In this document: piece after piece, positions 11,333 to 26,041 of the stretch | Layout of the letters: the number at the start of each line of letters is the position of its first letter | How positions within the stretch are numbered: position 1 is the stretch's first letter | NCBI RefSeq assembly: GCF_017876095.1 | Contig: NZ_JAGINM010000003.1 | Span: 63,491 to 127,490, forward strand | Origin: Azospirillum agricola | GTDB lineage: Bacteria; Pseudomonadota; Alphaproteobacteria; Azospirillales; Azospirillaceae | Direction: 5' to 3' | Length of the DNA: 64,000 nucleotides | The notes under the pieces: model-generated | The model's input: only the letters and a program-made list of their open reading frames with translations | What the model was told of the DNA's origin: nothing | Database searches by the model: none | Translations under genes and position numbers: made by a program

Positions 11333-14300
11333 TTACCACGCGTCCATCAGTTCGTCGTCGCCGCTGCCGTCGGGGAGGGCGGTGGCGGGCTGGGCTTGGT
11401 TGGGCGACGCCGTCGCGTCCCCGCCGCCCAGCGTTGCCAGGGTGGCGCCGGGGTCGGCCACGGCGCGGTGGGCCAGCGCGACGAACGCCCCGGCCAGCCG
11501 CTCGGCGGTCTGCGGGTCGAACAGGTCGGCGGCGTATTCCAGGGCCAGCTCGATCTCGGGCCGGTCCTCGAACATGAAGTTGAGGTCGTACTTGGCGCTG
11601 ACGCTGACGTCGCGGATCGGCCGGGCGGTGATTTCCGGCAGCTCCAGCCGCAGGGGCTCGTTGTTCTGGAGGATCACCAGCACGTCGAACAGGGGCTGGC
11701 GGCCGGGCAGGCGCGGCGGGTCCAGCTCCTCGACCAGCCGGTCGAAGGGGTAGGACTGGTGGGTGAAGGCGTCCAGCGCCAGCGCCCGCTCGGCCGCCAG
11801 CAGGCCGGCGAAGCTCTGGCCGGGCGACAGGCCGAGGCGCAGGGGCAGCAGGTTCAGGTGGAAGCCGATCAGCCCCTCCAACTCGACCTGGGTGCGTCCG
11901 GCCACCGGGGTGCCCAGCACGATGTCGCCGTCGCCGGAGACCAGATGGAGCTGCGCGCGCACCAGCGCCGCGAGCACGACGAACAGGGTGGTGTCGTGGG
12001 CGCGGGCGAGCGCGTTGAGGGCGGCGGTCAGCGGGCGGTCGAGCCGGGCGTGGACGATGGCCCCGTCGCCGCCGGCCCGTTCCGGACGCGGCCGGTCGGT
12101 GGGCAGGGCCAGCACCGGCACGCGGTCCTCGAACAGCCCGAGCCAGAAGCGCCGCGCCGCCGCCAGCCCCGGCCCGGCGGCCTCGGCCGTCTGCCAGGCG
12201 GCGTAGTCCTTGTACTGGAGGGGCAGCGGCGGCAGGGTCGCGGCCAGGGCGGCCCCGGTGCGGGCGGGGTCGGCCAGGGCGGCGCGGTACAGCGCCTCCA
12301 GCTCGCGCAGCATCACCGTCACCGACCAGCCGTCCGACACCACATGGTGCATGTTCAGCAGCAGGGCGTGGCTGTGGCGCCCCTCCGGCTCCCGGGGCAG
12401 CTCCACCACCCGCACCCGCAGGAGCGGGCCGGTGCCGAGGTCGAAGACATGGCGCAGCTCGGCCTTGAGGGCGTCGTCGATGACCGCGTCGGTGCCGGCG
12501 CCGCCGTCCCGGCTGCGGTCCTCCGTCTCCAGGATGAAGCCGTTGGGCGGCGGGTCGATCACCTGACGGGCTTGGCCGTGCCGGGTGACGAAGCGGGTGC
12601 GCAGCACCTCGTGGCGGACCACCAGCGCTTCGAAGGCATGGGCCAGGGCGTCGAGCCGCAGGGGACCGTCCAGGAGGAAGCCGCCCACCATGTTGTAGCT
12701 GACCAAGTCCGGCTCCATCGACTGGAGCAGGCACAGGCGGCGCTGGGCGAAGGACAGCGGATAGCCGTCGGCGGAAGCGGCCGGCGGCGGGGCGGGGGCG
12801 ATGCGCCGGTCCTCTTCCGTGCCGCGCGCGGCCAGCAGGTCGGCCAGGGCGCCCAGCGTCTGGGCGCTGAAGAAGTCCTTCAGGGTCAGCGGGCGGTCGA
12901 GCTGGCGGCGGATGCGGACGACCGCCTGGTTGGCCTTGAGGCTGTGGCCGCCCAGCTCGAAGAAATTGTCGCGCAGCCCGACGCGCCCGACGCCCAGCAC
13001 CTCGCGCCAGATGGCGGCGACCGTCCGCTGCACGGGGGTTCGCGGTTCGTCGGCGACCCCGCCCCCGCCGCCGGCCAGCGGGCGTCCGGCCGCCGCCAGG
13101 GCGGCGCGGTCGATCTTGCCGTTGGCGGTCAGCGGGATCGCCTCCACGCCCAGCAGGCGCGAGGGCACCATGTAGTCGGGCAGCTTGTCGGAGAGGTGGT
13201 GGACGATGTCCTCCCGCGACAGAACGCTTCCCGGTTCGGCCGCCAGATAGGCCGACAGGCTGTCGCCGTCGGGAAGCACCACGGCGTCGCGGATGCCGGC
13301 ATGGGCCAGCAGCTGGCGCTCGATCTCGCCCAGCTCGATGCGGAAGCCGCGGATCTTCACCTGATGGTCCAGGCGCCCCAGATAGACCAGCTCGCCATCC
13401 TCCGTCATCCGCCCCAGATCGCCCGAGCGGTAGAGCCGCTGGCCGGGCAGGGCCGGGTGCTCGATGAAGCGTTCGGCGGTCAGTTCGGGACGGTTCAGGT
13501 AGCCGCGCGCCACCCCGTGGCCCGTCACCAGGATCTCGCCGGTGACGCCCACCGGCAGCGGCCGCAGGGCCGGATCCACCAGCAGGACGCCGTAGGAGGG
13601 CAGCGGCGCGCCGATGACGCTGCGGCCGGCGGCGATCTCGTCGGCCCCGATGGTCTTGAACGTGACGTGCACGGTGGTCTCGGTGATGCCGTACATGTTG
13701 ACCAGCCGGGTCTCCGGATGGCGGCGGTGCCAGTCGGCCAGCCGGGCGGGCTGGAGCGCCTCGCCGCCGAAGATCACCTCGCGCAGGCGGAGAGCCGGAT
13801 CGGGGTGGGCGAGCGCGGCGTCGATCAGGCTGTGGAAGGCGGTGGGGGTCTGGTTCAGCACCGTCACCCCCTCGCGCGACAGGCAGTCCAGGAAGGCGGC
13901 GGCGTCCTGGGCGACGCGCTTGGGTACCACCACCAGCCGGCCGCCATGGAGCAGCGCCCCGTACATCTCCCACACCGAGAAGTCGAAGCAGGGGGAGTGG
14001 AACAGGGTCCACACATCCTCCGGCCCGAAGGCGAAGGGATGGCGGTCGTGGAACATCAGCTGCACGAGGTTGCGGTGCTCGACCATCACGCCCTTCGGCA
14101 CCCCGGTGGAGCCGGAGGTGTAGATGACGTAGGCGAGATTCTCCGGCCCGGCGGCCGGGGCGGGGTTGTCCCCGGAAGCATTGTCCCCGGGACCCTCCGG
14201 CTGGTCCACCAGCAGGACCGGCCGGCCGAAGCGGGCGGCCTCCCCGGCGTGGGCGGCGTCGGTGACGATCACCTCCGCGCCGGAATCCCCGACCATGAAG

Positions 14301-26041: not shown

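Follow-up and report, generated by a model that had tools for sequence, protein, structure and literature searches.

Which product is begun by the megasynthase that occupies more than fourteen kilobases of a stretch of Azospirillum agricola DNA, and is it started in the way in which the iturin synthetases of Bacillus start theirs? The stretch, 64,000 nucleotides long and called the window in the following (NCBI RefSeq assembly GCF_017876095.1, contig NZ_JAGINM010000003.1, positions 63,491 to 127,490 of the forward strand; GC content about 74%), carries on its reverse strand an uninterrupted open reading frame (ORF) of 4902 codons (11333..26041), whose GC content at third codon positions (GC3) of 0.94 is of the coding type, so that we regard it as a real gene. 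Its product is very probably the first subunit of a hybrid polyketide synthase-nonribosomal peptide synthetase (PKS-NRPS) assembly line for a lipopeptide, which starts with a beta-amino fatty acid as the iturin and mycosubtilin synthetases do. Pfam searches with the full 4902-aa protein and with in-frame pieces of it, in which the main domains reached E-values from 1e-13 to 1e-97, give the order fatty-acyl-AMP ligase (FAAL), acyl carrier protein (ACP), ketosynthase (KS), acyltransferase (AT), ACP, aminotransferase (AMT), condensation domain (C), remnant of an adenylation domain (A), peptidyl carrier protein (PCP), C, C, A(Thr), PCP and C.

An earlier note on this DNA had placed the first six of these, with the AMT as a class-III enzyme dependent on pyridoxal phosphate (PLP), within residues 1-2250, and all of them were found there by Pfam, as were all motifs that it quoted in the protein, including GHSVG and HAFHS. 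The FAAL (24362..25987, residues 19-560; all domains of the megasynthase lie on the reverse strand) matches AMP-binding over residues 19-430 (E 9.5e-47) and has a C-terminal subdomain reaching to about residue 560; ACP1 (24029..24217, residues 609-671; PP-binding, E 3e-13) carries Ser635 in GLTSLR. The KS (22826..23926, residues 706-1072) matches ketoacyl-synt (6.5e-85), Ketoacyl-synt_C (3e-41) and KAsynt_C_assoc and is joined by a linker that Pfam recognizes as CurL-like, up to about residue 1210, to a cis-AT of predicted malonyl type (21548..22369, residues 1225-1498; Acyl_transf_1, 5.1e-57). ACP2 (21002..21202, residues 1614-1680; PP-binding, 2.2e-13) carries Ser1643 in GLDSLL, and the AMT (19310..20638, residues ~1802-2244, with Lys2079) matches Aminotran_3 over residues 1848-2206 (5.1e-56).

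The catalytic motifs that were looked for in these domains are in place. The KS was examined for a loss of its active-site Cys or His and keeps the Cys-His-His set in DTACSSS (C869), EAHGTGT (H1004) and H1044; the AT contains GHSVGE (S1315) and HAFHS (1414-1418), from which we assume malonyl specificity by the HAFH/GHSxG rule, and the serines of all four carriers (S635, S1643, S2878, S4367) are present. The FAAL domain is matched over its full length by the FAAL structures 3PBK, 3KXW and FadD32. When its sequence is read by eye, about 47 residues separate the A3 motif and YGLAEGT from the next conserved strand, a stretch which we read as the FAAL-type insertion. The AMT region was tested as a possible non-aminotransferase, for instance a ketoreductase (KR), and proved to be a class-III PLP aminotransferase with the AMT domain of MycA (mycosubtilin; 6KFM/6KFU) as its best match among solved structures (E 4e-156, 523 bits, the 6KFM alignment spanning residues 12-454 of the 460-residue query), while glutamate-semialdehyde aminomutases reached about 212 bits with the same query. 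Its Schiff-base lysine K2079 lies in TYGKIVGGG and is aligned with TYGKIIGGG of the MycA structure, and the domain is 52-54% identical to the AMT regions of the Bacillus iturin-type enzymes. Pfam returned no KR, dehydratase (DH) or enoylreductase (ER) family for the whole protein or its pieces (E<=0.001 to 0.1), in agreement with the earlier note, and the linkers between AT and ACP2 (115 aa) and between ACP2 and AMT (167 aa, Ala/Pro-rich) leave no room for a reductive domain.

Since the KS and the AT are intact, the reductive domains are absent and the AMT is MycA-like, an initiation of the iturin type is the best-supported reading, and a beta-amine is predicted to be installed on the ACP-bound chain. 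In the reference systems the acyl ligase loads ACP1, the malonyl transferase charges ACP2, the KS forms a beta-keto thioester and the AMT replaces its ketone by the beta-amine, for which glutamine is the amine donor of MycA (PMC11751314, PMC3870968, PMC3039948). Transferred to the Azospirillum enzyme, the FAAL would adenylate a free fatty acid and load it onto ACP1, as its family suggests, the cis-AT would put malonyl on ACP2 and the KS would condense both to a Cn+2 beta-ketoacyl-S-ACP2. The ketone should stay because KR, DH and ER are absent, and the MycA-type AMT would turn the beta-keto thioester into the beta-amino thioester, presumably with the amine donor known from MycA.

This kind of initiation is not unusual for a proteobacterium. 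A search with residues 1-2250 returned 2465 proteins at E<=1e-10, the best 120 clusters of which (90% identity) were analysed; 94 of these 120 carry the FAAL/KS/AMT unit, 79 of them with a cis-AT as well, and their sources include Sphaerotilus, Massilia, Saccharophagus, Alteromonas, Cystobacter, Melittangium, Chitinophaga, Paenibacillus, Bacillus and many metagenomes. Some homologues already bear the JGI label 'iturin family lipopeptide synthetase A', among them a full-length orthologue (P0283). The starter is thus widespread in Proteobacteria, Bacteroidota, myxobacteria and Firmicutes and is already annotated automatically by pipelines. The Bacillus homologues cover 53-56% of the query and have no AT match in Pfam, which fits the trans-acting FenF/ItuD. 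The initiation is therefore of a known and widespread kind; the cluster is an orphan, the product of which appears undescribed.

Behind the AMT the enzyme takes a less familiar course. The four C domains counted in the earlier note are there as four Pfam Condensation matches, but they do not build four ordinary modules, as C1 belongs to a C-carrier (C-T) unit lacking an A domain and C3 is non-canonical. C1 (17969..19222, residues 2274-2691; Condensation, 9.7e-50) has HHIVADGWS and is followed by the C-terminal piece of an A domain (17492..17968, residues 2692-2850), which Pfam detects weakly (AMP-binding_C, E 0.036), and by PCP1 (17300..17491, residues 2851-2914, Ser2878; PP-binding, 2.9e-16). 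The A core of this module is missing; the remnant retains A7-A9-like strings, has lost the A10 lysine, and aligns with genuine A-domain C-termini in BLASTP (E 9e-28 and 3e-26). It is also present in four related proteins (L002, P0283, P0121 and P0122). An iturin-type subunit A of Bacillus amyloliquefaciens (P0110) reads FAAL-T-KS-T-AMT-C-T-C-A-T-C by Pfam, which amounts to a single amino-acid A domain beside three C domains and four carriers, and PCP1 corresponds to the third carrier of such Bacillus proteins. In all nine AT-less iturin-type enzymes from Firmicutes the C domain after the AMT matches C1 best, whereas in the enzymes that run AMT-C-A (n=51) it resembles an ordinary LCL domain, with C1 as best match in only 6. 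The spacer that follows in Paenibacillus-, B. cereus- and Melghirimyces-type enzymes measures 250-330 residues and is homologous to an A-domain C-terminus plus T (E 1e-25 to 1e-42); the B. subtilis-group enzymes have kept T alone in this place, and the Azospirillum remnant stands at about 1e-27. Judged by this distribution, the A-less unit is not damage and can be regarded as an iturin hallmark shared with the Bacillus enzymes. Iturin peptides consist of seven residues. Because of this number, and because the one Bacillus subunit A analysed holds a single amino-acid A domain, the unit should add no residue, and by analogy it most likely passes the beta-aminoacyl chain on as it is. Among the reviews consulted, no mention was found of a role for the post-AMT C-T unit of MycA-type enzymes.

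The second peculiarity lies in front of the Thr-activating domain. C2 (15962..17245, residues 2933-3360; Condensation, 1.1e-87) is of the LCL type with HHAIGDVWS and the N-terminal motif SNAQARLW, and is directly followed by the C-like domain C3 (14609..15901, residues 3381-3811; Condensation, 7.6e-52), in which HHAVADKRA replaces HHxxxDG. The module is completed by A(Thr) (13115..14554, residues 3830-4309; AMP-binding, 3.2e-97, and AMP-binding_C) with the specificity code DFWNIGMVHK and by PCP2 (12833..13024, residues 4340-4403, Ser4367; PP-binding, 1.8e-14), and the protein ends with C4 of the LCL type (11432..12769, residues 4425-4870, HHVVSDGWS; Condensation, 2.2e-83), which serves the first A-T of the next synthetase, NRPS2. 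Specificity codes were read at the GrsA reference positions; GrsA itself returns its known code DAWTIAAICK in this way, so that the register is valid.

As the raw ranking of C3 relatives was dominated by giant NRPSs in which the scores of several C domains add up, 376 retrieved proteins were re-mapped locally. In this set the C3-type domain is marked by HHxxxD followed by R, K, H or Q, by the N-terminal HQERLWF[IV]DxFE and by G.GK.D, and it always has an ordinary C before it and an A domain behind it. The A domains behind it have a Thr-type code in 13 of 13 cases (twelve DFWN[I/V]GMVHK and, in P0283, DFWSVGMVHK), while control A domains from the same proteins have other codes in 10 of 11, the exception being the next module of the Pseudomonas protein P0374, which is Thr-coded with no C3-type domain before it. 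In conservation the C3-type domains equal their partner C domains (mean identity 37.9% vs 35.6%, near-invariant columns 58 vs 44), and the catalytic second His is lost in 2 of the 13, which speaks for a role different from ordinary condensation. The order C-C3-A(Thr) recurs in P0374, in P0141 and in 10 other modules. P0374, which has the layout published for KeaB, carries a C3-type domain with HHLLADRSA before an A domain with DFWNIGMVHK, and we presume that the allo-Thr of the corresponding syringomycin-class product is installed by this tandem-C module. That P0374 is KeaB itself is not claimed, its third A-domain code being no textbook Asp code. A 'tandem CL domain' has been described for module 1 of KeaB and also for the thanamycin and nunamycin synthetases, the role of the duplication being called elusive, and keanumycin hydrolysate contains L-allo-Thr (PMC9897216). 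As a further observation, P0288 from an uncultured Chitinophaga sp. carries the C3-type domain twice (residues 465-903 and 3004-3442), each time before a DFWNIGMVHK A domain, and in P0330 the N-terminus is a C3-type domain, the partner C of which may sit on another subunit.

The assembly line would continue on two further synthetases. NRPS2 (1820..9325 on the reverse strand, 2501 aa) has the order A(DVRHLALLAK)-PCP-C-A(DAATIAAVCK, with a methyltransferase (MT) insert)-PCP-epimerization domain (E), with the E motifs PIQRWFF and HHLVVDSVSW and a communication-mediating (COM)-like tail, TPSDFTYKGLSLDDLDALL. Its first A domain (7736-9325, reverse strand, residues 1-530) has an Arg at position 239 in the code DVRHLALLAK, to which the codes for Ser (DVWHLSLIDK) and hydroxyphenylglycine (Hpg; DAYHLGLLCK) are nearest with 6 of 10 positions each. 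NRPS3 (34123..38148 on the forward strand, 1341 aa) is transcribed divergently from the megasynthase operon; it begins with DIYPLTPFQEG and consists of a DCL-type C, an A domain with the Asp-like code DLTKLGHIAK, a PCP and a thioesterase (TE) with GWSFG. The end of NRPS2 and the start of NRPS3 were considered as a second tandem C arrangement, which was dismissed as they represent an ordinary E domain with COM tail and then a DCL domain. In the proposed pathway C1-(A remnant)-PCP1 would hand the chain on, most likely without an extra amino acid, C2 would join it to Thr on PCP2 with C3 acting within the same module, C4 would pass it to NRPS2 for the addition of one residue and then of an N-methylated, epimerized aromatic residue, and NRPS3 would add Asp and release the chain by its TE. 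Tailoring would fall to an AsnB-like amidotransferase and to a TauD-type oxygenase, and export to an ATP-binding cassette (ABC) pump. A beta-aminoacyl tetrapeptide is expected to result, which may form a ring through its beta-amine like the iturins; that this is an undescribed beta-amino lipopeptide, as the earlier note proposed, is plausible.

The tailoring and transport genes frame the synthetases. The AsnB-like glutamine-dependent amidotransferase (9396..11327, reverse strand, 643 aa; Pfam GATase_7 and Asn_synthase) starts with MCGILG, and its ATG lies 5 bases past the stop of the megasynthase gene; it scores 458 bits with TIGR01536 (cut-off 267), and its best match in the PDB is the hydroxyamidotransferase 7YLZ. 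The gene was masked by a spurious ORF of 2508 aa (9396-16922) that overlaps the megasynthase, since the ORF list gives each frame from its first start codon only, and was revealed by frame-specific GC3. Beyond NRPS2 lies a cyclic-peptide export ABC transporter (112..1752, reverse strand, 546 aa; ABC_membrane and ABC_tran; TIGR01194, 327.7 bits, cut-off 286.2), which we take to be a pump of the SyrD/PvdE type. It is followed, on the source contig left of the window, by an MFS_3 transporter gene (L001 13274-13967) that we assume to be EntS-like. The divergent intergenic region of 770 bp (26042..26811) is with 41.8% GC very AT-rich for this genome and presumably holds the promoters of both operons; the best match to a Fur box in it, 12/19, equals the mode of shuffled controls. 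On its other side follow, on the forward strand, a beta-lactamase-fold (S12-type) serine hydrolase fused to an autotransporter barrel (26812..30234, 1140 aa; Beta-lactamase 1e-48, Autotransporter 3.3e-32) with the intact motifs SHSK, YSN and HSG, and a DUF697 membrane protein (30265..30948, 227 aa; DUF697, 7e-12); SPFH and porin genes also belong to the cluster set. A second autotransporter within 20 kb (45726-48674, forward strand) displays an S8 subtilase. The TauD/TfdA-family Fe(II)/2-oxoglutarate oxygenase (38192..39160, reverse strand, 322 aa; TauD, 3.4e-40) contains an HRD motif and was not seen in the readable parts of three relative clusters. The edge of the cluster is marked by an Arg/Ala-rich protein of 368 aa with a CxxC pair and no Pfam or NCBIfam match (39440-40546, forward strand), encoded divergently from the TauD gene. 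A GH3 glycosidase lies beyond 40.5 kb, and just outside the cluster the gene of a CreD-like inner-membrane protein adjoins those of a histidine kinase and an OmpR-type response regulator (41881-45677), which together resemble a CreBC set.

The Azospirillum-like host named in the earlier note is borne out by the flank at 48.7-60.5 kb, which is syntenic with chromids of A. ramasamyi and A. lipoferum 4B (94% of its length aligns, at 86% identity). Both chromids carry other genes at the site of the cluster, and a megablast search of plasmid and chromid records with the loading region returned generic KS similarity only (<=12% coverage) and no Azospirillum record, so that the cluster is best seen as an accessory island on a chromid of an Azospirillum. 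A search by exact peptide words with the C1 to C3 block found no relatives among species-representative genomes. The cluster recurs in a few alpha- and beta-proteobacteria. L002 (GCA_977010415.1) is 71-76% identical, and its megasynthase gene is split after PCP1 and lies in three ORFs; P0283, from Pseudochelatococcus sp., is a full-length orthologue with the same 10-domain order in the gene succession megasynthase-AsnB-NRPS2-ABC, and Burkholderiales-type metagenome fragments carry the same genes. A short version is found in L009 (GCA_013299055.1, 10001-26290) and L010 (Limnohabitans, 3281-16453), which have FAAL to AMT, the AsnB-like gene and A-T-C-A(MT)-T-E, and in L009 additionally C-A-T-TE, the beta-lactamase-fold gene and DUF697. 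In both, the loading protein ends right past the AMT and the whole C1 to C4 block is absent. The NRPS3 type of protein, the DUF697 gene and the beta-lactamase-fold gene, the last apparently without barrel, are kept in L002 and L009. The AsnB-like protein recurs at 65-83% identity and at the corresponding place in L002, L004 and L009, always directly after the AMT-bearing gene, and its more distant homologues (at least 43% identity) are almost always found inside NRPS clusters. We found no product described in the literature from Azospirillum, Sphaerotilus, Limnohabitans or Pseudochelatococcus.

How firmly does the beta-amino lipopeptide pathway stand? Several points weigh against it: whatever goes beyond the domain content is a prediction from sequence; PCP1 has no A domain of its own, and its pass-through role is putative; C3 is non-canonical; the short versions L009 and L010 have no visible C domain for the first coupling of the beta-aminoacyl chain, so that coupling in this cluster family may not be fully canonical; no gene for a phosphopantetheinyl transferase (PPTase) or an MbtH-like protein is found in the window; the code DVRHLALLAK fits no substrate code known to us; and the TE sequence does not decide between hydrolysis and cyclization, which makes macrolactam closure a prediction. 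Linear beta-amino lipopeptides of the microginin type exist, and the same initiation could lead to a linear product with a free N-terminal beta-amine, the TE hydrolysing the chain and the AsnB-like enzyme amidating its carboxylate. With four amino-acid A domains the ring would be small, and the AsnB-like gene is by its conservation a core gene, the product of which scores well, if below the cut-offs, with the models for peptide-carboxylate amidotransferases (TIGR03104, TIGR03108) and has a hydroxyamidotransferase as its closest structure. We hold this outcome to be somewhat less likely than not, as the exporter belongs to a cyclic-peptide ABC family and the nearest functional model, iturin, cyclizes via its beta-amine (PMC4219810). 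The peptide would be longer by one residue than the A domains suggest if PCP1 received an amino acid in trans, either from the Thr A domain or from another A domain in the genome. The Ser of PCP1 and the HHxxxD of C1 and C2 are kept, and there is precedent for supplying an A-less module in trans, as SyrB1 does for module 9 of SyrE (PMC8949500); yet the homologous Bacillus C-T unit would seem to add no residue to the seven-residue iturins, as judged from the one subunit A analysed, and the cluster contains no stand-alone A-T or aminoacyl transferase gene, which makes us regard such loading as rather unlikely.

Two further explanations depart more strongly from the proposed pathway. The cluster might encode an acyl-peptide siderophore, in which the TauD-type enzyme would hydroxylate the residue of the Asp module and the resulting beta-hydroxy-Asp would bind iron. 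The TauD-family gene adjoins the Asp-activating terminal module, an MFS_3 gene follows the ABC pump, L002 is flanked by fragments of a TonB-dependent receptor and by a chorismate-binding enzyme, and FAAL-started siderophores with beta-hydroxy-Asp exist in the form of the cyanochelins (bioRxiv 10.64898/2026.07.24.740629). However, one bidentate ligand at most can be predicted, NRPS3 has a single DCL C with no interface domain beside its Asp A domain, the Fur-box match does not rise above the shuffle mode, the TauD gene is missing from the relatives as far as they can be read, and the cluster in the window includes no TonB receptor or uptake ABC genes, so that a siderophore is quite improbable. 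An interface role for C3 itself, recruiting the TauD hydroxylase, was rejected since the A domains that follow are Thr-coded (13/13) and not Asp- or His-coded; at three other C3-type loci no TauD gene lies within 10 kb. Still further from the evidence is a megasynthase in decay, non-productive and with the A-less module and C3 as the wreckage of deletions and a duplication. It could call upon the loss of the A core and the A10 lysine from module 1, on the missing Gly of HHxxxDG in C3 with a catalytic His that is not universal in its subtype, and on the gene of L002 lying in three ORFs. Against this stand the intact 14.7 kb ORF with coding-type GC3, the conservation of both oddities like the rest of the protein in at least four lineages, the presence of an A-less unit in the productive Bacillus iturin enzymes, and the C3-type domain, which is conserved like its partner C and has the same placement in the productive keanumycin and nunamycin synthetases (PMC9897216). 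Decay is therefore highly improbable, and we retain a beta-amino fatty acid-started lipopeptide line.

Within this preferred reading, the C3-type domain may be a dedicated tailoring or recruiting member of the condensation superfamily with carrier-bound Thr as its target, for example one that sets the L-allo configuration found at the corresponding residue of keanumycin, and the short variants may couple their beta-aminoacyl chain non-canonically with the participation of the AsnB-like or the beta-lactamase-fold protein; we put this forward tentatively and think it rather unlikely. If C3 does have such a role, the Azospirillum line with four residues and one Thr module would be the simplest natural system to demonstrate its role. 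The value of the locus for enzymology lies less in the starter, which follows textbook iturin logic, than in two conserved but unexplained parts that can be seen here in a compact setting: the C-carrier unit without A domain that follows the AMT, and the C-like domain linked to Thr. Azospirillum is a plant-growth-promoting genus from which we found no lipopeptide described in the literature, and the short beta-amino lipopeptide predicted here may act in the rhizosphere on fungi or on membranes.

The comparison with known systems places the enzyme between several of them. The arrangement had been equated in the earlier note with that of MycA/ItuA and of the puwainaphycin synthetases, which is right for the initiation logic and does not extend to the exact order on one polypeptide. 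MycA, ItuA and BmyA have in common with the Azospirillum enzyme the FAAL-ACP, the KS, a second ACP, the MycA-type AMT and the lack of reductive domains. In both, the AMT is directly followed by a C-carrier unit that lacks an A domain and whose C belongs to one subtype, and the subunit closes with C-A-PCP-C. The Bacillus subunit A has no C3-type domain and, in the B. subtilis group, no A remnant. The iturin peptide is a heptapeptide with Asn as its first residue, made by seven A domains over three subunits, six modules following the first; the Azospirillum line has Thr at its first A domain, four amino-acid A domains in the cluster and three further modules. The iturin operon is not known to contain an AsnB-like or TauD gene. 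The Bacillus enzymes are also without a cis-AT and rely on FenF/ItuD in trans (PMC11751314), whereas the Azospirillum enzyme carries its own at residues 1225-1498. Puwainaphycin synthesis in Cylindrospermum (PuwC/D/B/E) shares the FAAL, a non-reducing KS-AT-ACP, the AMT and the NRPS part leading to a beta-amino fatty acid lipopeptide, but employs separate, stand-alone FAAL and ACP proteins, an additional fully reducing and methylating PKS (PuwB) and an oxygenase (Ox) domain that adds a 2-hydroxyl (PMC4219810). In the Azospirillum enzyme all parts are fused, and KR, DH, ER, C-methyltransferase (cMT) and monooxygenase domains are absent. The tandem-CL module of KeaB and of the thanamycin and nunamycin synthetases has the same arrangement C, C-like, A(Thr) and T (PMC9897216); these lines are otherwise unrelated, as they make beta-hydroxy acyl nonadepsipeptides, and C3 and the Pseudomonas domain share 35% identity. 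Two C domains before one A-T are likewise found in the icosalide synthetase of Burkholderia, where the second is of the starter type and N-acylates Ser with a second lipid (PMC10510592), whereas C3 is LCL-derived by its SxHQERLWF N-terminus, is linked to Thr and has no universal catalytic His. The generic FAAL-ACP-KS-AT-ACP-AMT loaders of Sphaerotilus, Massilia, Saccharophagus, Cystobacter, Melittangium, Chitinophaga and others share the six-domain order with a cis-AT, at 34-57% identity over the loading region in the inspected matches with at least 98% query coverage. They mostly run AMT-C-A with an LCL-like C (51 analysed), whereas the Azospirillum enzyme inserts a Firmicutes-type C1-(A remnant)-PCP; by its sequence its loading unit thus presents itself as a mosaic, with the cis-AT of most Gram-negative versions and the post-AMT unit of the Firmicutes enzymes.

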